Positions 2,807-63,999 of a stretch of 64,000 nucleotides of DNA are shown here, in pieces. A model generated the notes under the pieces. The model made no database searches, was not told the DNA's origin, and saw only the letters and a program-made list of their open reading frames with translations. Within the stretch, counting starts at the first letter, position 1, and the number at the start of each line of letters is the position of its first letter. This DNA is from an uncultured Bacteroidota bacterium (GTDB lineage: Bacteria; Bacteroidota; Ignavibacteria; Kryptoniales; JAKASW01). The stretch is from positions 1,264,830 through 1,328,829 of the forward strand of contig OY969888.1 of the NCBI GenBank assembly GCA_963704305.1, written 5' to 3'. Both the position numbers and the translations under genes were made by a program.

Positions 2807-3169
2807 TTACTCTTCCTTCCCTCGGATGCGGATGATATTCTCCTCGACTATCCATAGCCGTTGGTCAAGAGGTTCGACCCCAATCGCAGATAGAACGTGA
2901 GTGAAGATTTTCACAACGTGTTTCTTCCCCTGAGTACCGACTCTCAGAACGATGATCCCACTGTACTCCGCCGGCGGGTATGCCCCGATATTGGAGAAAT
3001 CTGTGTCCAAGGTAACAAGAACACGACCCTCTTCCTTGCACAAGCTCACGAGGGCCAAATCATCTACGCCCTCCAACCGTTGATCACCTACTGTCTTCGC
3101 GTCATGACCTCTGTCGAGAAGGGATCTCGCTATCTCAACGGGTAGATTCTCATCAACCTTGAAACGCAC
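2807..3169 (-). CDS. DUF5615 PIN-like toxin (VapC45-like)
   Basis: MRFKVDENLP...D...GRVLVTLDTDF is the typical DUF5615 pattern; the gene lies directly downstream of a DUF433 gene. Confidence 0.9.
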   Translation of the reverse strand: MRFKVDENLPVEIARSLLDRGHDAKTVGDQRLEGVDDLALVSLCKEEGRVLVTLDTDFSNIGAYPPAEYSGIIVLRVGTQGKKHVVKIFTHVLSAIGVEPLDQRLWIVEENIIRIRGKEE

Positions 3170-3175
3170 TTCCCG

Positions 3176-3487
<312 letters not shown>

Positions 3488-3596
3488 CTAAGTCGGGTTG
3501 AGCTCGAACTGGATGGAATGACGCGCTAGCGCTTGTCGGAGCCGATCATCTACAATGGGCTTCCCAGGCAGGACCTTTCGGAAACAGAAGAAGGTT

Positions 3597-5231
3597 TTAC
3601 TTCTCTCCCATGAACGGATAACGGTAGTTCTTCGGAGGGATCAAGTTTTCCTTCGTACTCCGCGGCGACATCCACCTTACCATATTCAGGAAGCTGCCGG
3701 CTTTGTCGTTCGTCCCGCTCGCGCGTGCGCCGCCGAACGGCTGCTGGCCGACGACGGCGCCGGTCGGCTTGTCGTTGATGTAGAAGTTCCCGGAGGCATT
3801 GATCAGTATACGATTCGCCGTGGCCACGGCATACCTGTCGTGCGCGAAGATTGCACCGGTCAGTGCGTACGGCGAGGTCTCATCACAGAGCTGAAGCGTC
3901 TCTTCATATTTGTCATCGTCGTAAACATAGATCGTCATTACCGGTCCGAATATCTCCTCTTCCATGGTGCGGAAGTGCGGATTCTTCGTTAGAATGATCG
4001 TCGGCTCGATGAAGTATCCCTTCGAATCGTCGTAATTGCCGCCGCAAACGATCTCCGCATCGCCCGACTTCTTTGCATAGCCTATGTATTCGGTAATGGT
4101 GGTGAATGCGCCCTTGTCGATAACTGCGTTCATGAAGTTGGTGAAGTCGCATACATCGCCCATCTTGATAGTCTTAATCTCGCCGAGCATGTGGTCCTTC
4201 AGATTCGCCCATATCGATTTCGGTATGTAAGCGCGTGAGGCTGCGGAACATTTCTGTCCCTGGTACTCGAATGCGCCCCGGATGATCCCGACTCCGAGCT
4301 CCTCGATGTCCGCGCTCCTGTGAGCGAATATGAAATCCTTGCCGCCCGTTTCGCCGACGATCCGGGGATACCATTTGTACTTGCCGATGTTCCCGCCGAC
4401 TGTTCTCCACATATCGTGGAACACAGCCGTGCTGCCGGTGAAGTGAATCCCAGCAAGATAAGGCGAAGCCATCGCGGGTCGACCGACCGCACCGCCCGAT
4501 CCTGGCACGAAGTTCATCACTCCCGGCGGCACTCCGGCTTCCTGAAAGAGTTTCATGATGTAGTAGGCAGAATAAACTGCGCTCGACGCCGGCTTATCGA
4601 GAACGACATTGCCGACCATCGCCGGAGCAGAAGGAAGGTTTCCCGCTATCGAAGTGAAGTTGAATGGCGACACTGCAAACACGAACCCTTCAAGCGGACG
4701 GTATTCCATCTTGTTCCGTACATCCATCGGTGAATGGGGCGGCTGCTGCTCGAAGAGCTGCATCGCATAGTACGCATTGAACCGGAAGAAGTCGGTGAGC
4801 TCTGCGGCGGAATCGATCTCCGCCTGGAAAACATTCTTGCTCTGCCCGAGCATCGTGGCCGCGTTGAGCGTATCGCGCCACGGACCGGAAAGAAGTGCGG
4901 CTGCCTTCATGAAGATTGAAAGCCGCTCTTCCCAATCCAACGCTGCCCATGCTTTCCGCGCGGCGAGTGCGGCCTCGATGGCCATATTGACTTCCTTCTC
5001 ACCAGCCTGATGATAAGTCGCTATCACTGTGCGATGATCGTGGGGTAGAACGCACTTTCCGATCTTGCCCGTCCTGACCTCTTCTCCGCCAATGATCAGT
5101 GGAATTTCGATTTCTTTATTCTGCATCTCTTCCAATTTTGCTTTCAGCGATGCCCGCTCCGGCGATCCGGCCAGATAATTCTTCACCGGCTCGTTCGGCG
5201 GCAGGGGTATTTCAAATTTTGCGTTGGACAA
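3597..5231 (-). CDS. pruA: Delta-1-pyrroline-5-carboxylate (L-glutamate gamma-semialdehyde) dehydrogenase, ALDH4A1/PruA type
   Basis: PPNEPVKNY, EIDSAAELTDFFRFN, SPFNFTSI, ETGGKDF, FEYQGQKCSA (catalytic Cys), GAVVGQQPFGGARASGTNDKAG; AAGGAG RBS before a TTG start. Confidence 0.96.
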   Translation of the reverse strand: MSNAKFEIPLPPNEPVKNYLAGSPERASLKAKLEEMQNKEIEIPLIIGGEEVRTGKIGKCVLPHDHRTVIATYHQAGEKEVNMAIEAALAARKAWAALDWEERLSIFMKAAALLSGPWRDTLNAATMLGQSKNVFQAEIDSAAELTDFFRFNAYYAMQLFEQQPPHSPMDVRNKMEYRPLEGFVFAVSPFNFTSIAGNLPSAPAMVGNVVLDKPASSAVYSAYYIMKLFQEAGVPPGVMNFVPGSGGAVGRPAMASPYLAGIHFTGSTAVFHDMWRTVGGNIGKYKWYPRIVGETGGKDFIFAHRSADIEELGVGIIRGAFEYQGQKCSAASRAYIPKSIWANLKDHMLGEIKTIKMGDVCDFTNFMNAVIDKGAFTTITEYIGYAKKSGDAEIVCGGNYDDSKGYFIEPTIILTKNPHFRTMEEEIFGPVMTIYVYDDDKYEETLQLCDETSPYALTGAIFAHDRYAVATANRILINASGNFYINDKPTGAVVGQQPFGGARASGTNDKAGSFLNMVRWMSPRSTKENLIPPKNYRYPFMGEK

Positions 5232-5271
5232 TGTGGTGATCTCCTTTTCTTTAGAATAAAACGGCGAACAA

Positions 5272-5350
5272 AGTCAAAACTCAAAGGTAGTCGTCTTCAA
5301 GTTTGGACTTTTGAGTTGCAGTTTTGACATTTGACTTTTGACCTATGACT
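5272..5350. repeat. Inverted arrays of 7-bp tandem repeats (AGTCAAA / TTTGACT type)
   Basis: AGTCAAA-ACTCAAA at 5272-5285, opposite TTGGACT TTTGAGT ... TTTGACA TTTGACT TTTGACC TATGACT at 5303-5350. Confidence 0.75.
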
Positions 5351-5363
5351 TCCTTTGTTTGAC

Positions 5364-6482
5364 TTATTTCTTTATGCTTTCTTCTAACGCCTCAAGACAC
5401 AGCTTAACATTTTTCTCGTTCGAAGTGTATCCCATCAAACCGATTCTCCAGATCTTCCCGGAAAGCTGCCCGAGTCCGGCGCCGATTTCAATGTTGTATT
5501 TGTCGAGAAGGCGATCTCTGACGACGGCTTCGTTCACGCCTTCGGGGACCGATACTGTGACGAGCTCCGGCAGGCTTGCTTCGCCGGTGACGAAAGTCTG
5601 GAGCCCGATCTTCCCGAGCCCGGCGCGGAACAGTTCTGAATTCCTTTGGTGCCGTGCCCATGCGTTTTGAAGCCCTTCTTCATGAACAAGAAGAAGTGCT
5701 TCATGCAGACCATAGAGTGCGTTGATCGGAGCAGTGTGATGGTAAGTTCGCTTTGCGCCGCTCCAGTAGCTCAGCACCAGCCCGACATCCATGAACCAGC
5801 TTTGCACTTTCGTCTTGCGTTTCTTGATCGCATCGACTGCGCGCTCGCTGAACGTGATAGGTGAAAGTCCGGGTGGACAGGAGAGGCACTTCTGACTCCC
5901 GGAATAGACAACGTCGAGCTCCCAATCATCGACCTTTACGGGAATTCCGCCGAGAGATGTGACTGTGTCGGCGATAGTAAGACACCCGTATTTACAGGCG
6001 ATGCGTGCGAGTTCTTCTATGTCGGAACGAGCACCGGTCGAGGTTTCAGCGTGCACGAATGCGACAACCTTCGTGTCTTTGTTTTTTGCAAGAGCATCTT
6101 CAAGCTTCGCCGGATCTACCGGTTGTCCCCAGGGCGCATCCACAACAACGGGTGTACCACCATGGCGTTCCACCATCTCCCTGATGCGGCCGCCGAACGC
6201 ACCGTTGACACAGACTGCAACCTTTGTCCCCGGCTCGACCATATTCACGACGGCGGTTTCCATCCCCACAGACCCGGGGCCGGAAACGGGAAACGTAACT
6301 TCGTTCTTCGTCAGAAATGTATCTCTCAGGAGTGATTTTATTTCATCCATCAATCCGATAAATGCAGGATCAAGGTGTCCGATTGTCGGCCGTGCCATGG
6401 CCTCTAATACACGCGGATGGACATTAGACGGACCCGGTCCCATCAGGATTCTCCCGGGAGGATTGAAAGAATTTATCTTCAT
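5364..6482 (-). CDS. Alanine-glyoxylate / serine-pyruvate aminotransferase (PLP class V)
   Basis: LMGPGPSNVHPRVL, VHAETSTG, DTVTSLGG, YSGSQKCLSCPPG (PLP lysine), YHHTAPIN, IWRIGLMG; AGXT-like throughout. Confidence 0.92.
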   Translation of the reverse strand: MKINSFNPPGRILMGPGPSNVHPRVLEAMARPTIGHLDPAFIGLMDEIKSLLRDTFLTKNEVTFPVSGPGSVGMETAVVNMVEPGTKVAVCVNGAFGGRIREMVERHGGTPVVVDAPWGQPVDPAKLEDALAKNKDTKVVAFVHAETSTGARSDIEELARIACKYGCLTIADTVTSLGGIPVKVDDWELDVVYSGSQKCLSCPPGLSPITFSERAVDAIKKRKTKVQSWFMDVGLVLSYWSGAKRTYHHTAPINALYGLHEALLLVHEEGLQNAWARHQRNSELFRAGLGKIGLQTFVTGEASLPELVTVSVPEGVNEAVVRDRLLDKYNIEIGAGLGQLSGKIWRIGLMGYTSNEKNVKLCLEALEESIKK

Positions 6483-6638
6483 TATTTTCTCCTGCTCAAT
6501 TTAAGTCCGATCTCCGATCTCTCAAGACATGCAAAGATAGTTTCATTCTAAGTTCAAGCACGTTTGAATAGAGCGACCGAGTAATTTGTCCGCGGCGTTG
6601 CTTCGGCAGATCATGATCCAGGGACCTTCTCCCCCTTG

Positions 6639-6825
6639 TCCCGATCCTGATACATCTGCCGCTCTGCGGCATCCCGCACACCACATATACAATAATGAGC
6701 GGGACATGTTTTGATCGGGATCCCGAACATCCTGTTCGGGAATGGGGGAGAACAAAAGAGAGGGTGATAGGTTCACTCTCTCTAATTCTCACCCTCACCT
6801 TAATCCTCTCCCGTCAAGGGAGAGG
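6639..6825. repeat. Cluster of palindromic (REP-like) elements downstream of the DUF559 gene
   Basis: TCCCGATC (6639) pairs with GATCGGGA (6713); TCCCGAAC-N5-GTTCGGGA at 6721-6741; GAGGGTGA...TCACCCTC; CCCTCACCTTAATCCTCTCCC-GTCAA-GGGAGAGG at 6792-6825. Confidence 0.75.
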
Positions 6826-6889
6826 AGGCAAGCAATCATGGCACAGCCCCGCGTAAAGACGTGGTTTCTTTCGGAGTATTTGAACATGT

Positions 6890-7228
6890 TCAAATGCATT
6901 CGAGTATTCGCTCCACTACGCCGTTCATGTTCGTTAGAATATCATTATCAGCAAATCTCAGGACCTTGAAACCTTGTTCCCACAACCACGCGTCCCTACT
7001 CAAATCTCTCTTCTTCTCTTCAGCGTCGTAGTGCTGAGCGCCATCTGCCTCAATAATCAACTTCCTTTCAAGGCACACAAAATCCACGATGAACTGTCCA
7101 ATTGGTTGCTGCCTCCTGAACTTTAATCCTTCAAGTTGTTTTCCCCGAAGTGCTCTCCACAGAGACGATTCAGCATCAGTCATCCTTTTGCGAAAGCTTC
7201 TTGCAAGTGGCGTTAACCGGCTCTTCAT
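6890..7228 (-). CDS. DUF559 (Vsr-like, very-short-patch-repair-type) endonuclease
   Basis: From ATG at 7228: LARSFRKRMTDAESSLW...KFRRQQPIGQFIVDFVC...IEADGAQH...RDAWL...GFKVLRF. Confidence 0.92.
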   Translation of the reverse strand: MKSRLTPLARSFRKRMTDAESSLWRALRGKQLEGLKFRRQQPIGQFIVDFVCLERKLIIEADGAQHYDAEEKKRDLSRDAWLWEQGFKVLRFADNDILTNMNGVVERILECI

Positions 7229-7342
7229 ATACCAGCGATGACTTTCTGTACCATGATGAACATAGCTCCCTTGCTTGACGGAACGGAACAAAAGGCAGGA
7301 TGAACCGACAAAGAAAGCTTTCCTCTCGATGTCAAGGCGTAC

Positions 7343-8224
7343 TTAATCAAGAAGGCCTGCCGACTTCAATATCGTTTTCAAATCTTCGCGCTCACGGTCG
7401 CCGAGCGGTGAAAGCGGACTCCGCGGATCACCACCGAAATAGCCTAGCATATCCATCGCCGCCTTCAGACCCGGCACGCCGTACTTGGATGTGACGGCTT
7501 TGTTAATTGGAATCAGTTTCATCTGCAGGGCAGAAGCTTCGTCGTGCTTCCCCTCGTCAAAGAGCCGCTGAAGCTCGACACACTCGTCCGGCGCTATGTT
7601 CGCGAGAGCAAGTATTCCACCTGTAGCGCCTGCCGCCAGACCGGGATACAAGACGGAAGCGGTCCCAACGAGCACCGAAAAATCTTTCGGCACACTGCTA
7701 ATTATCTCAGCCATGTGTGCCGCATTCTCTGCGCTGTTCTTCAGTCCGACAATGTTCCCGTGCCCTGATAACTCCGCGACAGCATCTGCCTCAATGTTTA
7801 CGCCGGTGAACTTCGGAACGTTATAAATGATCAGCGGAATCTTAATCCTGTCGGCCACTTCAGTGAAGTATCTCACGAATGCAGCGCTGTTCATCTGTCC
7901 CTTGTAGAATGACGGTGTGAGAACTAACGCGTAATCGGCACCGCGCTCTGCCGCTTCGTTCGAGAGGTCGATCGTTTCCTTTATTGAGTCAGAGCCTGTT
8001 CCGGCAATAAGTAATTTCCCCGACGCGATGTTCTTCTTCGTGACCTCGACCAGTTTCAGTTTTTCCTCTCGCGTCAGGAACACACTTTCTCCGTTGGAAC
8101 CCATGACAACAAATCCGCTGAGGCCGCTTTCGTTCCACCGATTCAAGTTTTCAGCGAGCCTGCTGTATGCCACTTCACCATTTTCAAATGGTGTAGTGAT
8201 CGGAGGCATTATACCTTTTATCAT
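7343..8224 (-). CDS. DHDPS-family aldolase, 4-hydroxy-2-oxoglutarate aldolase (HOGA1)-like
   Basis: GSNGE instead of the DapA GTTGE, plus TPSFYKGQMNSAA, YNVPKFTG, Schiff-base GLKNS, GGILALAN and KYGVPGLKAAMDMLGYFGG. These segments match HOGA1 as I recall it. Confidence 0.8.
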   Translation of the reverse strand: MIKGIMPPITTPFENGEVAYSRLAENLNRWNESGLSGFVVMGSNGESVFLTREEKLKLVEVTKKNIASGKLLIAGTGSDSIKETIDLSNEAAERGADYALVLTPSFYKGQMNSAAFVRYFTEVADRIKIPLIIYNVPKFTGVNIEADAVAELSGHGNIVGLKNSAENAAHMAEIISSVPKDFSVLVGTASVLYPGLAAGATGGILALANIAPDECVELQRLFDEGKHDEASALQMKLIPINKAVTSKYGVPGLKAAMDMLGYFGGDPRSPLSPLGDREREDLKTILKSAGLLD

Positions 8225-8239
8225 CTCAACGCTTTCAAT

Positions 8240-9169
8240 TCAACTTGAGAAAATATTTTTCGCGACGAACCAGACATTCGCAGGACGCTCAGCTAGACGG
8301 CGGACGTACCATTTGTACCAAGCCTTGCCGTAACTTATCAGAACGCGGATTCGATAACCTTCATTCGCAAGACGCTTCTGATCGCTCGCTTTGATCCCGT
8401 ACAGCATTTGTATCTCGACCTTACCTTTCGACAAACCGATTTTCTTTGAAGCGTCGAGTATCCTGCCGTGAAGTCGGGTATCATGAGTTCCGAACGCAAC
8501 TCTCGCGCCGTTCTCCTTTATACCGCGGAGAAGTATTTGGGACAGCTCGAAGTAATTGTCATCGACATCTTTCTTCTCGGGAAACACGATCTCATCCGGT
8601 TCCTTGTACGCACCCTTGACGAGACGGATCATCGGAGAAATCTTCAGCAGATCCTGTATGTCGTTTCTTGTCCGTCTCAAATACGATTGGAGACAAACTC
8701 CCGTATTCGGATAATCTTTCCTCGCTTTTCGATAAAGGTCCAGCGTCGCATCGACATAGTCGCTCCGTTCCATGTCGATCCAGACGACGTTATTGAGCTG
8801 GCGCGCATTCTCCGCAATGAGCCTGAAGTTTTCATATGCGCGCTCTTCCGACAGATCGAGCCCGAGCTGAGTCAGCTTCACCGAAATTTCAATGTCGAGT
8901 ATCTCCGATGAAATTCTCTCGAGGACTTCGATGTAATGATTCCTCACCGTTTCTGCTTCGTTCAGGTCGCGTATGCTTTCACCGAGATAGGTGAAGACCG
9001 TTGGAATTCCATCACCCTTGAAAATCCTCGCCGCTCCGATCGCATCCTCGAGACTTTCTCCCGGCATGAACTTCTTCAATGCTTTCCGAACAAAACTGAG
9101 ATTCGGAACGTGCTCGATCAGCGTCGGGTTCTCAGATGCCCAGAGAAGAATATTTCTGGAAATTCCCAA
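8240..9169 (-). CDS. Monofunctional proline dehydrogenase (FAD, TIM barrel)
   Basis: ISVKLTQLGL, WIDME, GVCLQSYLRRT, IRLVKGAYKEP, FGTHD, QMLYGI, YGKAWYKWYVRRLAERPAN. Confidence 0.95.
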   Translation of the reverse strand: MGISRNILLWASENPTLIEHVPNLSFVRKALKKFMPGESLEDAIGAARIFKGDGIPTVFTYLGESIRDLNEAETVRNHYIEVLERISSEILDIEISVKLTQLGLDLSEERAYENFRLIAENARQLNNVVWIDMERSDYVDATLDLYRKARKDYPNTGVCLQSYLRRTRNDIQDLLKISPMIRLVKGAYKEPDEIVFPEKKDVDDNYFELSQILLRGIKENGARVAFGTHDTRLHGRILDASKKIGLSKGKVEIQMLYGIKASDQKRLANEGYRIRVLISYGKAWYKWYVRRLAERPANVWFVAKNIFSS

Positions 9170-9426
9170 TTAACGACTTCCTTCCACTTGACTGCGATGC
9201 GAAAGTGAAATCGGGAGGGTGTCTGCCGAGTTGTCCTTTTCAATCATGAGAAGTAATCGTGCTTAGTTAGAAAGAAACCGGAATTTTAGGAACCGGATTA
9301 ATCTAACATTCAAAACGGAAATTTTCGAGACCGCATGATAACCGGGAAAGCTTTTCAATTTCAGCAAGAATCGGGTTTCCCATTGGACACTTTTTGAATA
9401 ACTTTGTTATACAATTGGGAGGTCAC

Positions 9427-10257
9427 ATGACAGACTACGAACGAATAGCAAATGCGATCTTTTACATCAAAGAACATTTTCGAGAGCAGCCGGACCTGAA
9501 GCGAGTGGCGAGTGAGGTGCATCTGAGCGAATATCATTTTCAGCGACTGTTCAAGAAGTGGGCGGGCGTGAGTCCGAAGAAGTTTCTCGAGTACATCAGC
9601 ATAGAACATGCGAAGGACCTGTTGAGACAGGATGCATCGCTGGCGGAGGCGAGTTATCACGTCGGCCTGTCCGGCACGAGTCGTCTGCACGATCTGTTCG
9701 TCAACATCGAAAGGATGACGCCAGGCGAATACAAGAATAAAGGCGAGAACCTCTCCATCAAATATGGCTTCTATGAGACTCCATTCGGAAAGATCATCGT
9801 TGCCTCGACGCCGAAGGGAATCTGCCATATCGGCTTTGCGAATAACGAACAGCGTTCCTTGCGGATACTGCGCGACAGATACGCAAATGCGACAGTTGAA
9901 CACAAACGCGATCCAATTCACCTGAGCGTTCTTCGAATTTTTCTCGATGACTGGAGCAACATTTCCAGAATCAAGCTCCATCTTAAAGGAACACCTTTCC
10001 AGCTCAAAGTCTGGGAAGCGCTATTGAAAATTCCGTTCGGACAGATAAGTACATACGGCCAGATTGCCGAGGCGATCGGATACCCGACGGCTTCGAGGGC
10101 GGTCGGCACAGCGATCGGCAGTAACCCTGTCGCGTATCTCATACCATGTCACAGGGTAATCAAGTCGACGGGAGTGATCGGCAACTACCACTGGGGCGAT
10201 GTCCGGAAGATGGCCATTATCGGCTGGGAAGCAGCGAGAACTTACGGAGAGAATTGA
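9427..10257 (+). CDS. AraC-type HTH fused to methylated-DNA--protein-cysteine methyltransferase (Ada/Ogt-like, no N-terminal Zn domain)
   Basis: HLSEYHFQRLFKKWAGVSPKKF HTH; GTPFQLKVW...IPCHRVI active site; GGGAGG RBS before ATG at 9427. Confidence 0.9.
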   Translation: MTDYERIANAIFYIKEHFREQPDLKRVASEVHLSEYHFQRLFKKWAGVSPKKFLEYISIEHAKDLLRQDASLAEASYHVGLSGTSRLHDLFVNIERMTPGEYKNKGENLSIKYGFYETPFGKIIVASTPKGICHIGFANNEQRSLRILRDRYANATVEHKRDPIHLSVLRIFLDDWSNISRIKLHLKGTPFQLKVWEALLKIPFGQISTYGQIAEAIGYPTASRAVGTAIGSNPVAYLIPCHRVIKSTGVIGNYHWGDVRKMAIIGWEAARTYGEN

Positions 10258-31676: not shown

Positions 31677-32879
31677 TCAATCCTGAACGAAAGAGATCAG
31701 TCCATAGATGATTTCCGTCCCGGGCCTGAGGTTGCACTCATATATCGGGGGAATAGTGCCAGTTTCCTTGTGGTATGCTTCCTGGATTTTTCTCCTGAAT
31801 TCCTCAACCGAGCGTCCTTCGACGAGATTCAACGTGCAACCTCCGAAACCTCCACCCATCATCCTTGCTCCGAGTACCCCGTCAATTTCCAATGCAGCAT
31901 CGACAAGCACGTCGAGTTCCCTGCAGGTCACTTCGTACTTGTCTCTCAAACCCTCATGCGAAGCGTACAGGAGCGCACCGAACCGAGTGTAATCGTCACG
32001 CCGCAAACACTCGCGCGCAGCGTTTACCCGAGCATTCTCCTCAAGCACGTACAGACAGCGTTTGTAGACTGTGCCATCCAACTCCACCGCATGCTCCTTC
32101 AACAATTCCGGACTTACGTCGCGGAGGCTGTGAACGTAAGGAGCATACTTCTTCACGATGCTCACCCCTTTTTCACATTGTCGTCTTCTCAGATTATACT
32201 CTGAAGATGCCAGACTTCGCTTCACGCCCGTGTCGCACAGGACAAATCTCAGGTCCTTTCTGGTGAAAGGAATGTATTCGTAATCGAGACTCCTGCAATC
32301 GAGATGCAGTGCGGATCCGCCTTTGCTCAACAGGCTCGCGAACTGATCCATGATGCCGCACTTTACTCCGACGAATTCATTCTCGGCGCGCTGCGCGATC
32401 TTCGCAAGCTCGACCCGCCGCAGGCCCAGGTTGAACACTGCATTCAAGGCAAACGCCAGCCCGGCTTCCAATGCAGCCGAGGAAGACATTCCTGCTCCTA
32501 TAGGGATATCACCGGCGAATAAACATTCGAAACCGTTTAATTGAAAGCCTGCCTTGCTTAGTTCGTCAACGATACCGATGAGGTAGTTGGCCCAACCCTT
32601 GTCGGATTTTACCGGCCGCCGTGAGTCGAAATAACAATCTTCACCAAAATCCACAGACCGAATTTGGACGTTATGGTCTGATCTCGGTGCAAGCGCAAGA
32701 CAGATCGCGCGGTCTATGGCGGATGGAAGTACAAATCCTTCGTTGTAATCCGTGTGCTCGCCGATCAGATTTATTCGACCTGGCGACCTCACCACCACCA
32801 TTTGTTCACTTTGACCAAATGTCCTGATGAACTCATTCCTTACAGAGCCTGCTATCTCCAGTTTTGATTCCAAATGCAA
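31677..32879 (-). CDS. galK: Galactokinase (copy 1, inside the PUL)
   Basis: SPGRINLIGEHTDYNEG, PIGAGMSSSAA, CGIMDQF, GARMMGGGFGGC. Confidence 0.95.
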   Translation of the reverse strand: MHLESKLEIAGSVRNEFIRTFGQSEQMVVVRSPGRINLIGEHTDYNEGFVLPSAIDRAICLALAPRSDHNVQIRSVDFGEDCYFDSRRPVKSDKGWANYLIGIVDELSKAGFQLNGFECLFAGDIPIGAGMSSSAALEAGLAFALNAVFNLGLRRVELAKIAQRAENEFVGVKCGIMDQFASLLSKGGSALHLDCRSLDYEYIPFTRKDLRFVLCDTGVKRSLASSEYNLRRRQCEKGVSIVKKYAPYVHSLRDVSPELLKEHAVELDGTVYKRCLYVLEENARVNAARECLRRDDYTRFGALLYASHEGLRDKYEVTCRELDVLVDAALEIDGVLGARMMGGGFGGCTLNLVEGRSVEEFRRKIQEAYHKETGTIPPIYECNLRPGTEIIYGLISFVQD

Positions 32880-33024: not shown

Positions 33025-35532
33025 TCATTTTCCAACAATCGGTTTCAGATGAGATGGCCGTGAAGCGATTGTGATTGTTGCGGTTCTTAGCCCATCGCTG
33101 GAAGCTGTCAGCCTGATGTTGCCCGGTTTGCGGTCAGACAGAACGACAGCTACACATTTGCCGTTATACAGCTTTCGTTGATACTTGCCGTCAGGATATT
33201 TGTCGGGCTCATGACTGCTGGGATTGCCATTACCGACACCAATTATCTCCCCTTCACCTTCGGCACCGAACTGAATCAGGTTATCAGCCGTCGGGACTTC
33301 TCTGCCAAGCGAGTCGACGACGGTGGCGGTGACAACTGAGACATCTTCACCATTCGCATTTATCGTGTCGCGATCAGAACTGAGCTTGATGACAACAGGC
33401 TCACCGGTCGTCTCCTCCTTAGCTGTCAACATCTTACCGCTTCTCCACCCATGGGCATCAAGCGTACCGGGTTCGTAGCTCACCGTCCACTCAAGGTGTG
33501 AATCTCTTTGCATGACTTTTGTCCCAAGGCTTTTTCCGTTGAGGAACAGTTCGACACTGTCGCAGTTGCTAAAGCACCAGACATCTATGGGCTGGCCTTT
33601 CCCGTGAACGGGATCTTCGACCTTCCCCTTCCAATTCCAGTGTGGGAAGATGTGAAGTACGTTTTTGTCGCTCCACCATGACTGGTAATAGTAGAAATTG
33701 TTCTTGGGAAAGCCGCACATGTCCATGATACCGAAATTAGAATTGATGTCGGGCCATTCGTAAGGAGTCGGCTCGCCGCGGTAATCGAAACCGGTCCACA
33801 CGAAGCCGCCAGCGAGATACTTATGCTCGTCGTAGAACCTCCACCACTCCTCGGCCGTCGCACCCCATGGCGGTGCATTGACATCGTAGTCGCTGACATA
33901 ACCCTTGGTGCTATCTTTTGCATATTCGCCTCGTGTAGAGACAGTGCTTGCTGTCTCGGTCCCGATCAGCGGTTGGTCGGGATGGTCCAGGTGGTACTGC
34001 TCGATGACGCTGGTTCTGTAATTGAAACCTCGCACCGGGATGACGCTGTTTACGGCATGTTCGTATGCAGCGCCGTCGTTTGCTGCAAAGGTGCAAGTCC
34101 TGGAAGGATCGATTCGCTCTTGGATCCCTATCAGTGTCTTCGCTATTCTGACTCCCACTTCTCTATCTTGCACACCCCATTCTTCATTTCCGATCGACCA
34201 AAGAATGACCGACGGATGATTCCTGTCACGGAGGATCAACCTTCCGAACTGCGAAATGTATTCGGGCGAACTGTTGAGTAGCCTGTTCTCGTCCATCACG
34301 AGCATGCCGAGCTTGTCGCAGGCATCGAGGAGTTCTGGTGTCGGAGGATTGTGACTTGTCCTAATCGCGTTGGATCCCATCTCTTTCAATTTCCGGATGC
34401 GATAATATTGCAGACCATCCGGCAAGGCGGTCCCGACCCCGGCGTAATCCTGATGGTTGCAGGTTCCCTTGATCTCCACTCGTTTTCCATTAAGAAAGAA
34501 TCCGTTGTCTTTGTCCCATCGAAGAGTTCTTATGCCAAAATTTGTCTCGACTCTATCTACAACTTTGTCGCCGGATTTCACGATCGAGACAAGCTTGTAA
34601 ATGTATGGTTTTTCCAACGACCATAGTTCGGGATGGTCCACAGAAATAGTTTGGCTGACAGTTTTCTCTTCATCCGGATTCAGTTTGCTTCCACCTGCTG
34701 ACGTGCTACCCAGAATCTTCCCGTGGTTGTCCATGATAATTGATTCAAGGTCAAATCTCCCAACGGACTCTCCGCCGTTGCTGACCTTCGTTTCTATGGC
34801 CAATGTCGCCTTGTTTCCATCTATCGATTTCGTTCTGATGTATGCGCCATACTTCGGAATGTGCAACGACGCAGTTTTAATCAACCATACATGTCTGTAA
34901 ATACCCGCACCTTCATAGAACCAACCTTCATAGTTTGTGGCATCGACCCGGACCACGAGAACGTTTTTCTCGCCATAGTTTATGAAGTTCGTTACATCGA
35001 AAAAGAATTCTGAATATCCGCTCATATTCTTCCCGACAAAATTGCCGTTCAACCAGACAATGCAATTCCTGAACACGCCGTCGAATTTTATGACGATTCT
35101 TTTTCCAACATCCTGTGTCGGGACAGTAAACGAATTCCTGTACCAGCCAATCGAGGTCGAAGGAAATTCTCCGCCGAGGGGTTTGTATCCATGTCCCATC
35201 ACGGCGTAGTCGTTGACATCGACAAAGGGAAGATAGACTGCCCAATCATGCGGCAAATTGACCGTCTGCCAGGAACTGTCGTTAAACCGAGGGCTGATTG
35301 CCCCGGGTCCGATTCCTTCCTTCGCAAAGATTTCGTCTGTTTCATACCCGAAGTCTTCCTGCGGATCTGCAGAATTCCCCAGATGAAATTTCCAGTTGTA
35401 ATCCATAAGAAGTTTCTGCCGTACGGTCGGAGCGCTCACATCAGCGGTTCTGACGCCGCCTCCTTGAGCTCCGAAAACAGAAAGTATTGACATGAAAAGA
35501 ATCGCTAGTGTCGCGGAAATCTGTCGAACCAT
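33025..35532 (-). CDS. GH2 beta-galactosidase (DUF4982-containing)
   Basis: Signal peptide, VNLPHDW, FDGVFRN, WFYEGAGIYRHVW, GTCNHQD, AIRTSHNPP, RDRNHPSVILWSIGNE, WTGFDYRGEP. Confidence 0.93.
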   Translation of the reverse strand: MVRQISATLAILFMSILSVFGAQGGGVRTADVSAPTVRQKLLMDYNWKFHLGNSADPQEDFGYETDEIFAKEGIGPGAISPRFNDSSWQTVNLPHDWAVYLPFVDVNDYAVMGHGYKPLGGEFPSTSIGWYRNSFTVPTQDVGKRIVIKFDGVFRNCIVWLNGNFVGKNMSGYSEFFFDVTNFINYGEKNVLVVRVDATNYEGWFYEGAGIYRHVWLIKTASLHIPKYGAYIRTKSIDGNKATLAIETKVSNGGESVGRFDLESIIMDNHGKILGSTSAGGSKLNPDEEKTVSQTISVDHPELWSLEKPYIYKLVSIVKSGDKVVDRVETNFGIRTLRWDKDNGFFLNGKRVEIKGTCNHQDYAGVGTALPDGLQYYRIRKLKEMGSNAIRTSHNPPTPELLDACDKLGMLVMDENRLLNSSPEYISQFGRLILRDRNHPSVILWSIGNEEWGVQDREVGVRIAKTLIGIQERIDPSRTCTFAANDGAAYEHAVNSVIPVRGFNYRTSVIEQYHLDHPDQPLIGTETASTVSTRGEYAKDSTKGYVSDYDVNAPPWGATAEEWWRFYDEHKYLAGGFVWTGFDYRGEPTPYEWPDINSNFGIMDMCGFPKNNFYYYQSWWSDKNVLHIFPHWNWKGKVEDPVHGKGQPIDVWCFSNCDSVELFLNGKSLGTKVMQRDSHLEWTVSYEPGTLDAHGWRSGKMLTAKEETTGEPVVIKLSSDRDTINANGEDVSVVTATVVDSLGREVPTADNLIQFGAEGEGEIIGVGNGNPSSHEPDKYPDGKYQRKLYNGKCVAVVLSDRKPGNIRLTASSDGLRTATITIASRPSHLKPIVGK

Positions 35533-53915: not shown

Positions 53916-55091
53916 TCAATCTGCAACGAGCTCGGTTCCTGCTGCGAGCCGGCACTCGTAAAACTTTGCCTCTTTGCCGGTCTTCCTCCTATACCTCTCT
54001 TCTACGCTGGCTTCGAATTCCGGGAGCGCGTCATTTTCAACCAGATTGAGCGTGCAACCACCAAAGCCACCGCCCATCATTCTTGCGCCGAGCACACCAC
54101 TTACCGTGGATGCTGCATCGACAAGGACATCAAGCTCGGTGCAGCTCACTTGATATTCATCCCTGAGTCCTTCGTGAGAGGCGTACAACAACTCCCCGAA
54201 CCTTGCATAGTCTGCCTTCTCGAGATACTTGCAGGCAATCTCGACCCGAGCGTTCTCCTCGAGAACATACTGACATCGAATGTACACAACAGGATCAAGC
54301 TCGGCCTTGTGTTCATCCAGCATCCCCAAGGTCACGTCGCGCAAGCTCCTAATCCCATTGTCGTGTGCTGAAATAGTTCTCACCCCTTGCTCGCACTGCT
54401 GTCGGCGCAAGTTATATGCTGATGAGGCAAGGGAACGATTCACTCTTGTGTCGCACAATATGAACCGCAGATTCTTCTGATCAATCGGATAATACACATA
54501 CTCAAGCGAACGGCAGTCGAGCCGGAATGCCGAATTCTCTTTGCTCAGCAAATTCGCAAACTGGTCCATGATGCCACACCGCACGCCGACGAACTCATTC
54601 TCGGATCTTTGTGCGATCTTGGCAAGATCCGCGCGACTGATGCCCAGGCGAAACATCTCATTCAACCCAAATGCAAGTCCAGCCTGTATCGCAGCGGATG
54701 ACGAAAGCCCGGCACCTATCGGAATACTGCCACCGAAGACACAATCGAACCCGCCAATGTCGTAACCCGCACTCAACAGCTGGTCCAGAACTCCTGCGAG
54801 GTAATTTGGCCAGGTCTTATCCGACCGCTCGATCTTCCGCAGGTTGATCTCGGCAGTCTCGGCAAAATTCTCCGAGTATATCATGCACTTCTCATCAGCC
54901 CGTCCTGATATTGCAAAATAGATATTTCTGTCGACTGCAGCCGGCAGCACAAAGCCATCATTATAATCTGTATGTTCACCGATCAGATTTATTCTCCCTG
55001 GTGAACGTACGATAATCGGGTCCGAGCTAATCCCAAATCGCTTCGAAAAAGCATCTCTAATTCTCACTATTCGTTGATCGAGATCTCCCAT
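53916..55091 (-). CDS. galK: Galactokinase (copy 2, with galT)
   Basis: SPGRINLIGEHTDYNDG, PIGAGLSSSAA, CGIMDQF, GARMMGGGFGGC. Confidence 0.95.
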   Translation of the reverse strand: MGDLDQRIVRIRDAFSKRFGISSDPIIVRSPGRINLIGEHTDYNDGFVLPAAVDRNIYFAISGRADEKCMIYSENFAETAEINLRKIERSDKTWPNYLAGVLDQLLSAGYDIGGFDCVFGGSIPIGAGLSSSAAIQAGLAFGLNEMFRLGISRADLAKIAQRSENEFVGVRCGIMDQFANLLSKENSAFRLDCRSLEYVYYPIDQKNLRFILCDTRVNRSLASSAYNLRRQQCEQGVRTISAHDNGIRSLRDVTLGMLDEHKAELDPVVYIRCQYVLEENARVEIACKYLEKADYARFGELLYASHEGLRDEYQVSCTELDVLVDAASTVSGVLGARMMGGGFGGCTLNLVENDALPEFEASVEERYRRKTGKEAKFYECRLAAGTELVAD

Positions 55092-62193: not shown

Positions 62194-63999
62194 TTATCTT
62201 TTCACGATCCGCACACCGAACACACCACCTGCAATTCTGCCGGGGTGCGCCTGAAACCGGACTGTGATATCGTTCCTTCCTCTGGTGAGAGAGTCCGGAA
62301 GAGAATATGTCACATCGAAAAACTTATTTGGTTTGTCCATCAGCAGCTTCTGTGTCGCGATTTTCGTGCTGTCCACAAGGATGTCGAACTCCCTCTGACC
62401 TCGTTCGCTTCCCCAGTACGTGACCATGAGATCGTTTGGTTTGTCCGGTTGGACTTTAACATTGAACGAGAACCATCCTCCTTCGGTGGCCTGTCGCCAC
62501 TGCCGGTCCATAAACTCACCGACGTTCGAATTCTCTCCTTTAAGACCGTGATTATCTTCATCCTGAGTTTCGCCGACGTTTAACACATCAATAGTGCGCG
62601 ATTCAAGTTCTTTAAGTCGCAACTGTTCGGCATGGTAAAGAGAATCTTCTGCCTGCCATTCCCGTTCGGTGTAGAGGTCCCAGTAAACTGAATAGCGTCT
62701 GTCGTGTATCTGATAAAACGGAATCATCTCTACATCGCTGGGACGACCGACATCTTGGGTATGAAACACTAACGGTTTGCCTTCGACCTGCACAGCCCAC
62801 TCCGACACCGGCCTATTATCAGTGACGAATGCTGGAACCCGTGTGTGAACGCCTACCGGACTCAGATCACCGGCAAGCAATATCGGGCCGTAAAATACCG
62901 CGACACGATTAGGATCGTCCGGCATAGATTCGGTGCGAACAAACAGCTGCATGTCAACCTCTACCACGTCGCCGTTCCGCCACACGCGATCAAGAGTCAC
63001 ATAACTCTGAGGCTTGCTGTTCACATTTACAGTCTTGCCGTTGATCTTGACATTGAAATATTTCGTGGCCCAAAATGGGTGACGCACTTTTATTGACAGC
63101 TTCACAGGCTTCTCACATGAGAGCAGCAGCCTTGTCGCACCAGACTCCGGAAAGTTAGTTTCTTGCCGGACTCGCAAACCTTTCTCTGTCCAGTTCAACT
63201 CGGATGCGATGAACAAGTTCACGTAAAGAGAGGAGTCACTGTGAAAATAGATGTTGTCGTTGTAGCGCGCATGGTTTTCCATGCCGGTGCCGGTGCAGCA
63301 GGCGAAGTCGTTGAACGGAGTCATGAACTGTTTGTGGCCGCCGGGCATCAACGACACGTAGTAGCAGACCATGCCGTTCTCAGGATTCTGCGAAGCGAGA
63401 ATGTGGTTCCAGACAGCACGTTCGTAATAATCGGCGTACTCGGCACGAGGATCGTGGCAAAACAGGTGTCGAGTCAATTTGAGCATATTGTAGGTGTTGC
63501 AGGTCTCCGTCGTATTGGAGTTGAGATAGTTGTTCAATTTGTCCGGAGGACTGAAAGATTCCCAGTCGCTGTTTCCCCCGGTAACGTATGAGTGGTGGTA
63601 AACTACAGCCTGCCAGAAGAATTGCGCCATCGCTGCGAATCTCTGTTCACCCATCAGTTGATAAATTCTCTCCGCTCCGATGAGTTTTGGAAATTGAGTG
63701 TTGGCATGCAAACCGGCGAGGTCATCCTTTCCGGCAGCGAGAGGATCAAGGACGACGTGGTCGTAAAACTTCTTCGCCAGCTCGAGATACTTTTTATCTC
63801 CGGTCAGTGCATAGACGTCAGCCATGACCTCGTTCATCCCGCCGTACTCGCAGACAAGCATTTTTTGCCATTGAGCCTCATCGAGATTCTTGGTCGTTTC
63901 GTACACCCACCCGGCAAGGCGTACCATGATATCCTTCGCCTTCTTGTTTCCACAATAGAGATAGCTGTCTCTCAATCCGGCGAAGAGTTTGTGTACCGT
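62194..63999 (-). CDS. GH127/GH146 beta-L-arabinofuranosidase-like protein, 5'-truncated by the window edge
   Basis: Frame is open to the edge (TVHKLFAGL); EYGGMNE, LHANTQ, GGNS..E, ETCNTYNMLKL, DYYERA..NHIL, CCTGTGMEN. Confidence 0.9.
   Translation of the reverse strand, partial: TVHKLFAGLRDSYLYCGNKKAKDIMVRLAGWVYETTKNLDEAQWQKMLVCEYGGMNEVMADVYALTGDKKYLELAKKFYDHVVLDPLAAGKDDLAGLHANTQFPKLIGAERIYQLMGEQRFAAMAQFFWQAVVYHHSYVTGGNSDWESFSPPDKLNNYLNSNTTETCNTYNMLKLTRHLFCHDPRAEYADYYERAVWNHILASQNPENGMVCYYVSLMPGGHKQFMTPFNDFACCTGTGMENHARYNDNIYFHSDSSLYVNLFIASELNWTEKGLRVRQETNFPESGATRLLLSCEKPVKLSIKVRHPFWATKYFNVKINGKTVNVNSKPQSYVTLDRVWRNGDVVEVDMQLFVRTESMPDDPNRVAVFYGPILLAGDLSPVGVHTRVPAFVTDNRPVSEWAVQVEGKPLVFHTQDVGRPSDVEMIPFYQIHDRRYSVYWDLYTEREWQAEDSLYHAEQLRLKELESRTIDVLNVGETQDEDNHGLKGENSNVGEFMDRQWRQATEGGWFSFNVKVQPDKPNDLMVTYWGSERGQREFDILVDSTKIATQKLLMDKPNKFFDVTYSLPDSLTRGRNDITVRFQAHPGRIAGGVFGVRIVKR

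Follow-up and report, generated by a model that had tools for sequence, protein, structure and literature searches.

We present evidence that four genes at positions 3597-9169 of a 64,000-nucleotide stretch of DNA from an uncultured Bacteroidota bacterium, here called the window, probably form an operon for the respiratory catabolism of trans-4-hydroxy-L-proline (Hyp) along the pathway that animal mitochondria use. We hold this reading, which is drawn from homology and gene context, with moderate confidence. The window corresponds to C1:1264830-1328829 of a 4.53-Mb single-contig genome, which homolog names and related loci assign to Candidatus Kryptoniota, beside Ignavibacteria; the genes encode a proline dehydrogenase (PRODH), an aldolase related to human HOGA1, an aminotransferase resembling AGXT, and a pyrroline-5-carboxylate (P5C) dehydrogenase (P5CDH). 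To our knowledge, the oxidative PRODH2-HOGA1 route is regarded as specific to animals, in textbooks and primary papers alike, with bacteria using either the epimerase route or the glycyl-radical-type dehydratase HypD. We found no report of a bacterial route of the PRODH2-HOGA1 type, whether framed as a HOGA or as a 4-hydroxyglutamate route, in the searchable literature, and the Hyp pathways of bacteria and mammals have been described as completely different (PMC3958920). The cluster is made up as follows.

8240-9169, minus strand: PRODH, 309 aa, a monofunctional flavoenzyme and the 'L-type' paralog (PF01619, 107 bits); candidate trans-4-hydroxy-L-proline dehydrogenase.
7343-8224, minus strand: aldolase, 293 aa, a HOGA1-type class I enzyme of the dihydrodipicolinate synthase (DHDPS) family (PF00701, 197 bits); candidate aldolase for 4-hydroxy-2-oxoglutarate (HOG).
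6890-7291, minus strand: DUF559 endonuclease-like gene (PF04480, 135 bits), outside the pathway.
6483-6889, no strand: non-coding rest of an insertion, with a G+C-rich hairpin at about 6806-6826 and the aminotransferase upstream region.
5364-6482, minus strand: aminotransferase, 372 aa, AGXT-like, class V; candidate glyoxylate aminotransferase.
3597-5231, minus strand: P5C / 3-hydroxy-P5C dehydrogenase, 544 aa, of the ALDH4A1 (TIGR01236) type.

A preliminary description of this locus had named four co-oriented genes of these families, and a check of the open reading frames (ORFs) and their translations confirmed four intact minus-strand ORFs at these positions; Pfam, TIGR01236 and PDB matches bear out the family assignments, and 15 nt do separate the PRODH stop codon from the aldolase start codon. 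The four genes are, however, not contiguous: the description had overlooked the co-oriented DUF559 ORF, which together with about 400 nt of non-coding DNA separates the aldolase from the aminotransferase.

In the route we propose, the L-type PRODH would oxidise Hyp to 3-hydroxy-P5C, with the electrons passing to the respiratory chain, and the ALDH4A1-type P5CDH would use NAD+ to convert 3-hydroxy-P5C to 4-hydroxy-L-glutamate. A transaminase, perhaps a class I/II aminotransferase encoded elsewhere in the genome or the AGXT-like enzyme of the cluster, would then produce HOG, which the HOGA1-type aldolase would cleave to pyruvate and glyoxylate. The AGXT-like enzyme would convert the glyoxylate to glycine, and the glycine would enter the glycine cleavage system. 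We found no malate synthase in the genome, which does encode the P-protein of the glycine cleavage system, and transamination to glycine is thus the evident outlet for glyoxylate; this in turn gives a clear role to an aminotransferase lying beside the aldolase. The genome also encodes six class I/II aminotransferases, none of them linked to the cluster.

Among all PDB sequences the best solved relative of the window aldolase is human HOGA1 (3s5n, 3s5o; 245 bits, E 7e-72), the best DapA reaching 164 bits, and the protein is 43% identical to HOGA1 as compared with 28-31% to E. coli DapA, NanA and YagE and to the DapA of its own genome. The sequence motifs on which the preliminary description had relied (GSNGE, FYKGQMNSAA, GGILALAN and GVPGLK..MD..GYFGG) are all present in its translation. 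Mutagenesis of human HOGA (hHOGA) has shown that Lys196 and Tyr168 are essential and that Ser77 is part of a relay of protons, and the residues Asn78 and Ser198 tell HOG binding from DHDPS, where Thr45 and Ala163 take their places (Riedel et al., PMC3188589). In our alignment S43, N44, Y134, K162 and S164 of the window aldolase correspond to S77, N78, Y168, K196 and S198 of hHOGA; all five are identical between the two proteins, as is hHOGA G222, and the five are invariant in 13 orthologs. Of these, K196 forms the Schiff base, and Y168 acts with S77 in relaying protons. Written as a signature, the residues read SNFYFKSG in the window aldolase, SNYYNKSG in human HOGA and TTYYRKAG in DapA. The two departures from the human enzyme are Tyr140, which is Phe106 here and invariant as such in the clade, and Asn173, which is also Phe. 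Tyr140 of hHOGA is contributed by the neighbouring subunit, and the kinetics of the Y140F variant equal those of the wild type, whereas the equivalent DHDPS mutant is down 12-fold; a natural Phe at this position is therefore more in keeping with a HOGA-like aldolase than with a DHDPS.

The preliminary description had proposed to place the aldolase in a phylogeny, and a maximum-likelihood tree of 150 representatives of the nearest clusters plus reference sequences (no LhpC among them) puts the window aldolase and human HOGA1 in one clade of 148 rows, with an approximate likelihood ratio support (SH-aLRT) of 99. Outside this clade are E. coli DapA, the organism's own DapA, NanA and YagE. The window aldolase is thus placed as a HOGA1-type candidate that would cleave HOG to pyruvate and glyoxylate, and automatic pipelines already name some proteins of this kind 4-hydroxy-2-oxoglutarate aldolase.

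These results also bear on whether the gene might instead encode a DapA isozyme, or the pyrroline-4-hydroxy-2-carboxylate (Pyr4H2C) deaminase of the epimerase route, either of which we consider highly improbable. The top-scoring NCBIfam model is indeed that of dapA (TIGR00674), but the score of 192.5 bits is under the cut-off of 206.15, and the DapA-specific residues Thr44, Thr45 and Arg138 are replaced by S, N and F. The true DapA of this genome is encoded elsewhere (C1:475106-475966, 327 bits). On these grounds, together with the position of the protein in the tree, we rejected the DapA identity, and this alternative is largely refuted. LhpC, the Pyr4H2C deaminase, is itself a DHDPS-family protein. 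It belongs to the classical bacterial route (PMC3958920), which also involves a Hyp epimerase of the proline-racemase family; a tblastn search of the genome with the proline-racemase-family protein of relatives found no homolog, and we rejected the classical epimerase route for this organism on that account.

The second enzyme on which our reading turns is the PRODH. The genome encodes two PRODHs that are 33% identical to each other: the cluster enzyme, for which Thermus PRODH (2ekg, E 7.5e-62) is the best match of known structure, and a second enzyme at C1:4211514-4212425, which adjoins a gene that looks uvrB-like by eye from its ORF translation. We aligned both with E. coli K-12 PutA, the numbering of which is used here. 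Both keep K329, D370, R431, Y437, L513, R555, R556 and E559, and the cluster PRODH alone of the two has Leu in place of Tyr540 and Trp in place of Tyr552. Leu is found at position 540 in all 69 of 69 aldolase-linked PRODH orthologs (motif VL[IV][SA]YG), with Trp likewise at the position of Tyr552, while Tyr540 is retained in the housekeeping paralogs, in Thermus and Deinococcus (motif VY[VL]P[YF]G) and in E. coli PutA. In a tree the L-type PRODHs form one clade (SH-aLRT 99) and the Tyr-type PRODHs another (100), and the aldolase-linked enzymes form a subclade of the former (98). Tyr540 has been reported to act as a steric constraint that makes PutA favour proline over hydroxyproline (Ostrander et al. 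2009, as cited in PMC3718742). To the extent that this citation describes it, the Tyr540 filter against hydroxyproline that marks a proline-specific PRODH is missing from the cluster enzyme, which we regard as a candidate for oxidising Hyp.

The gene order is conserved well beyond this genome. A profile-guided scan with one genome per species recovered 80 loci carrying aldolase orthologs at 58-85% identity, which span Kryptoniota, Ignavibacteriaceae, Melioribacteraceae, Stygiobacter and Calditrichaceae; since several contigs end inside the cluster, the counts that follow are lower bounds. A PRODH ortholog lies directly upstream of the aldolase and on the same strand in 72/80 loci, and the gap between the two is often <50 nt across this deep divergence. 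The aminotransferase is present in 62/80 loci and the P5CDH lies in the cluster in 43/80; PRODH, aldolase and aminotransferase occur together in 56/80, and all four genes in 36/80. The survey of synteny suggested by the preliminary description thus finds the genes co-conserved in at least four lineages. In a separate sample of 301 genomes drawn evenly from the phylum, in which cluster-type PRODH was counted at >=50% identity, 18 genomes had the L-type PRODH, 16 had the aldolase and 13 had the two together (Fisher p = 2e-16, with shared ancestry ignored).

The aminotransferase has alanine-glyoxylate aminotransferase (AGT) 1vjo as its best PDB match (387 bits), scores 260-277 bits with insect and mammalian AGXT (260-272 with human and mouse AGT) and is 37.5% identical to human AGT. 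Aligned to the human enzyme (4cbs), it keeps the equivalents of Lys209, the pyridoxal-phosphate lysine in the sequence SQK, of Asp183 and of the carboxylate-binding Arg360. We therefore class it as AGXT-type by family; conversion of glyoxylate to glycine is its candidate role, as judged from these residues. The P5CDH scores 788 bits with TIGR01236 (L-glutamate gamma-semialdehyde dehydrogenase; cut-off 613.6) and 568 bits with human ALDH4A1.

It is possible that the cluster aminotransferase doubles as the 4-hydroxyglutamate transaminase. BhcA, the L-aspartate:glyoxylate aminotransferase of the beta-hydroxyaspartate cycle, belongs like it to the class V AGT family and uses glyoxylate as acceptor and a dicarboxylic amino acid as donor, and thus sets a precedent for a cluster enzyme that accepts 4-hydroxyglutamate. 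The window aminotransferase is not a BhcA ortholog, scoring 216 bits against a cut-off of 650. A bolder form of the proposal, which we think rather unlikely, is that the four enzymes are self-contained and work without any GOT2: the AGXT-like enzyme would move the amino group of 4-hydroxyglutamate to glyoxylate, yielding HOG and glycine, and the aldolase would regenerate glyoxylate from HOG. Glyoxylate would then be catalytic, and the net conversion would be of Hyp to pyruvate and glycine. In such a cycle the L-type PRODH would be a true bacterial hydroxyproline dehydrogenase, soluble and minimal, and the whole would amount to a third bacterial route of Hyp degradation, possibly tied to the animal pathway by descent or transfer.

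The neighbours of the cluster in relatives provide further context. Ignavibacteria and Melioribacteraceae have a longer operon, with all genes on one strand in the order (HypD activase, HypD), M24 Xaa-Pro peptidase, proline-racemase-family gene, PRODH, aldolase, (GH2), aminotransferase, P5CDH and S37 peptidase, the genes in parentheses being found in part of the loci. The HypD of these relatives scores 1314 bits with NF043068 (cut-off 1100) and is thus a bona fide trans-4-hydroxy-L-proline dehydratase; HypD and its activase stand on the operon strand in 11 loci, an association that perhaps goes back to a single event, or to a few, within the Melioribacteraceae lineage. The proline-racemase-family gene is present in 17 loci and in 17/17 is of the Cys/Thr type, that is, of the trans-3-Hyp dehydratase type and not the epimerase type, although the proteins fall below the NCBIfam cut-off (407 vs 540). 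Xaa-Pro and S37 peptidases occur in 40 loci, and 23 loci have HypD or the dehydratase-type gene. The whole locus appears to serve growth on peptides rich in proline and Hyp, and these neighbours point to such peptides generally more than to plant glycoproteins specifically.

Several observations weigh against a mitochondrial-type Hyp route, and some of them fit an alternative that we judge to be unlikely, namely that an ordinary proline-utilisation operon (PRODH and P5CDH) lies beside an independent aldolase-aminotransferase module. In that case the genome would have two dehydrogenases for proline, the L-type PRODH being the second, and the module would handle glyoxylate, glycine or HOG from elsewhere, for example glycine from Gly-Pro-rich peptides. 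The genome has no P5CDH but this one, other aldehyde dehydrogenase matches in a genome search being <=30% identical, and so it must serve proline catabolism in addition to any hydroxyproline route. L-type PRODH occurs without any HOGA-type aldolase in 5 of the 18 genomes that have it (families f4 and f14); the link between the Leu variant and the aldolase is thus not strict, and the variant could serve as a second dehydrogenase for proline. Conversely, five Kryptoniota relatives keep the aldolase, aminotransferase and P5CDH without an L-type PRODH, having only the Tyr type. Since the L-type PRODH is found alone, and has been lost from five Kryptoniota clusters, the four genes do not form an inseparable set. 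The aldolase-aminotransferase pair is likewise found without L-type PRODH in genome G145, where one locus (L098, on G145:C55, 3302-10008) carries co-directional, tightly spaced genes for HypD activase, HypD, a POT di/tripeptide transporter, the aldolase and, last, the aminotransferase.

Other difficulties concern the enzymes themselves. Leu is still a sizeable residue, and the effect of Y540L and Y552W together on specificity is a predicted one. The cluster holds no dedicated gene for a GOT2-type 4-hydroxyglutamate transaminase, and the DUF559 insertion may upset co-transcription in this genome. In the tree the window aldolase and HOGA1 are not specific sisters; with 947 representatives at E<=1e-30, the HOGA1-like clade is a large one and almost wholly uncharacterised, and HOGA1 is the sole member of it that surfaced among solved structures.

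Nevertheless, a simple proline-utilisation operon sits poorly with much of what we find. The genome already has a Tyr-type PRODH, and PRODH and aldolase have stayed adjacent in 72/80 loci, often with gaps <50 nt, through deep divergence. The altered pocket residue is the very one implicated in excluding Hyp, in the account cited in PMC3718742; the genes around the cluster encode no other known HOG source; and the neighbours in relatives are Hyp-specific enzymes. Neither of the refuting outcomes named in the preliminary description that computation could address, a grouping of the aldolase with true DapA and a lack of co-conservation, was observed. The central proposal of that description, a mitochondrial-type Hyp route in a bacterium, thus finds backing in the grouping of the aldolase with HOGA1, the co-conservation of the genes, Leu540 of the PRODH and the neighbours in relatives, but is held back by the lack of a GOT2-type gene in the cluster and by a P5CDH that proline catabolism could explain.

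A HypD ortholog with its activase is also encoded in this genome, at C1:3096064-3099225, and is 66% identical to the HypD of relatives. Within C1:3088709-3099225 these two genes adjoin same-strand genes that, by eye from their translations, appear to encode a corrinoid-binding protein, three uroporphyrinogen-decarboxylase-like methyltransferases, a homocysteine-S-methyltransferase-like protein and a sugar-type major facilitator superfamily transporter. This neighbourhood suggests that a methylated hydroxyproline, in a betaine or N-methyl form, is demethylated to feed the dehydratase.

We have also considered whether the cluster, with the same architecture, might act on a different ring-substituted imino acid, such as cis-4-hydroxyproline, a trimmed glycosylated or methylated Hyp derivative, or a 4-substituted pipecolate, with the aldolase cleaving the matching 4-hydroxy-2-oxo acid. 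The pocket changes Y540L and Y552W differ from the experimentally studied Y540S/A, N173 of human HOGA1 is Phe in the window aldolase, a GH2 gene lies within the operon of seven relatives, and the corrinoid methyltransferase genes beside the genomic HypD hint at modified Hyp. We nonetheless find this quite improbable: N78 and S198, which contact HOG, are both kept, an aminotransferase of the glyoxylate type matches a C2 aldehyde-acid product, and no other isomer is nearly as common as trans-4-Hyp (PMC3958920).

The preliminary description had further linked the cluster to plant glycoproteins through a galactan polysaccharide utilisation locus (PUL) and a beta-L-arabinofuranosidase in the window, and this part of it fares poorly. 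The galactan locus (24367-55091) comprises GH53, four GH2, a GH59 with a type IX secretion system sorting domain, a TonB-dependent receptor, LacI and GalT, as well as galactokinase-family genes at 31677-32879 and 53916-55091; no SusD-like partner was noticed beside its TonB receptor in what was an incidental look only. The GH127 gene is at 62194-63975. PUL and GH127 lie 15-53 kb from the cluster, beyond genes for chorismate synthase, Ppx and polyphosphate kinase, and neither is part of the conserved cluster neighbourhood in relatives. We have therefore set this link aside, keeping one weak hint: in seven Melioribacter-like loci a GH2 gene of the beta-galactosidase type lies between the aldolase and the aminotransferase (e.g. 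L052:10913-13372), and its best match in the present genome is the PUL GH2 at 33025-35532 (56% identity). The operon GH2 may act on galactosylated Hyp or hydroxylysine peptides, and a glycan link made through it is suggestive at most.

With respect to the structure of the locus, the DUF559 insert is absent from most relatives, and the spacer between aldolase and aminotransferase is 20-250 nt in many Kryptoniota loci; the DUF559 block is thus a recent insertion. A 100-aa ORF at 6496-6798 had no family match in profile searches of the Pfam and NCBIfam type. Operon spacers in relatives hold a GIY-YIG nuclease in eight loci, an IS200-like Y1 transposase fragment in five and an unassigned 96-aa ORF in nine, and the intergenic gaps of the operon seem to be repeated landing sites for small selfish-looking genes. 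A scan of 3300-9500 for promoters and terminators gave no more matches than were found in shuffled sequence and is uninformative on operon structure. The sequence was present only in DNA runs of freshwater-sediment metagenomes, with no RNA run among the runs matched.

Directly downstream of the P5CDH, at 2807-3457, lies a DUF433 and DUF5615 (PIN-like) gene pair that resembles a toxin-antitoxin module. On the other side of the cluster, divergent from the PRODH, a plus-strand gene at 9394-10257 encodes an Ada-like fusion of an AraC helix-turn-helix domain and O6-methylguanine methyltransferase; the same neighbour is found in Kryptoniota relatives, and the gene is probably unrelated to the pathway, yet a stable landmark. 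In two of the five Kryptoniota relatives that have lost the L-type PRODH (L001 and L013) it directly adjoins the aldolase, the PRODH being missing from between them. We note also that in one Kryptoniota relative without an L-type PRODH the cluster P5CDH ORF is truncated to 315 aa (L015:12080-13027). Part of the Kryptoniota lineage thus seems to hold the cluster in a state of decay.

Compared with the animal mitochondrial route (PRODH2/HYPDH, ALDH4A1, GOT2, HOGA1 and AGXT), the cluster has the same enzyme families in the same logical order. The likeness extends to an aldolase 43% identical to HOGA1 with the HOG-binding residues, an aminotransferase 37.5% identical to AGT and a P5CDH of the ALDH4A1 subfamily, and in mammals as here one P5CDH is common to the proline and Hyp routes. 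The differences are that the genes here form a single bacterial operon with no GOT2 counterpart in the cluster; that the PRODH is a minimal bacterial enzyme of 309 aa (Y540L, Y552W) and not an elaborated eukaryotic PRODH2; that the aldolase, unlike human HOGA1, has Phe at 140 and 173; and that in relatives peptidases, a trans-3-Hyp dehydratase-type gene and HypD belong to the operon as well.

The classical route of Pseudomonas, Azospirillum and Sinorhizobium (LhpA epimerase, cis-4-hydroxy-D-proline dehydrogenase, LhpC and alpha-ketoglutarate semialdehyde dehydrogenase) shares the substrate and also involves a DHDPS-family protein and an aldehyde dehydrogenase, but its chemistry is entirely different, running via the D-isomer to 2-oxoglutarate, and tblastn found no proline-racemase-family gene in the present genome. 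HypD with its activase likewise acts on the same substrate, is physically linked to the cluster in 11 relatives and is present as a separate copy in this genome; it differs in carrying out an anaerobic dehydration to P5C in which neither HOG nor glyoxylate arises, which leaves the aldolase and aminotransferase unexplained. The PRODH and P5CDH of Thermus thermophilus are, as here, separate enzymes, and the PRODH is alike in fold and size, but it has Tyr at both pocket positions, and the Thermus P5CDH belongs to another subfamily (254 bits, as compared with 568 for ALDH4A1).

Cultured carriers of the cluster make the idea open to experiment: Stygiobacter electus 09-Me (locus L072) is a named strain whose genome is in RefSeq, and Melioribacter, some strains of which also carry the cluster, is a cultured genus. 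If it is true, the cluster would offer small, probably soluble bacterial models of the pathway enzymes, and the natural Y540L/Y552W pocket provides a direct handle on how the PRODH fold discriminates between proline and hydroxyproline. The route would then represent a third bacterial strategy for Hyp in Ignavibacteria, Kryptoniota and Calditrichota, which are common heterotrophs of sediments and the subsurface, and would help explain how these heterotrophs use collagen-like or plant Hyp-rich polymers.

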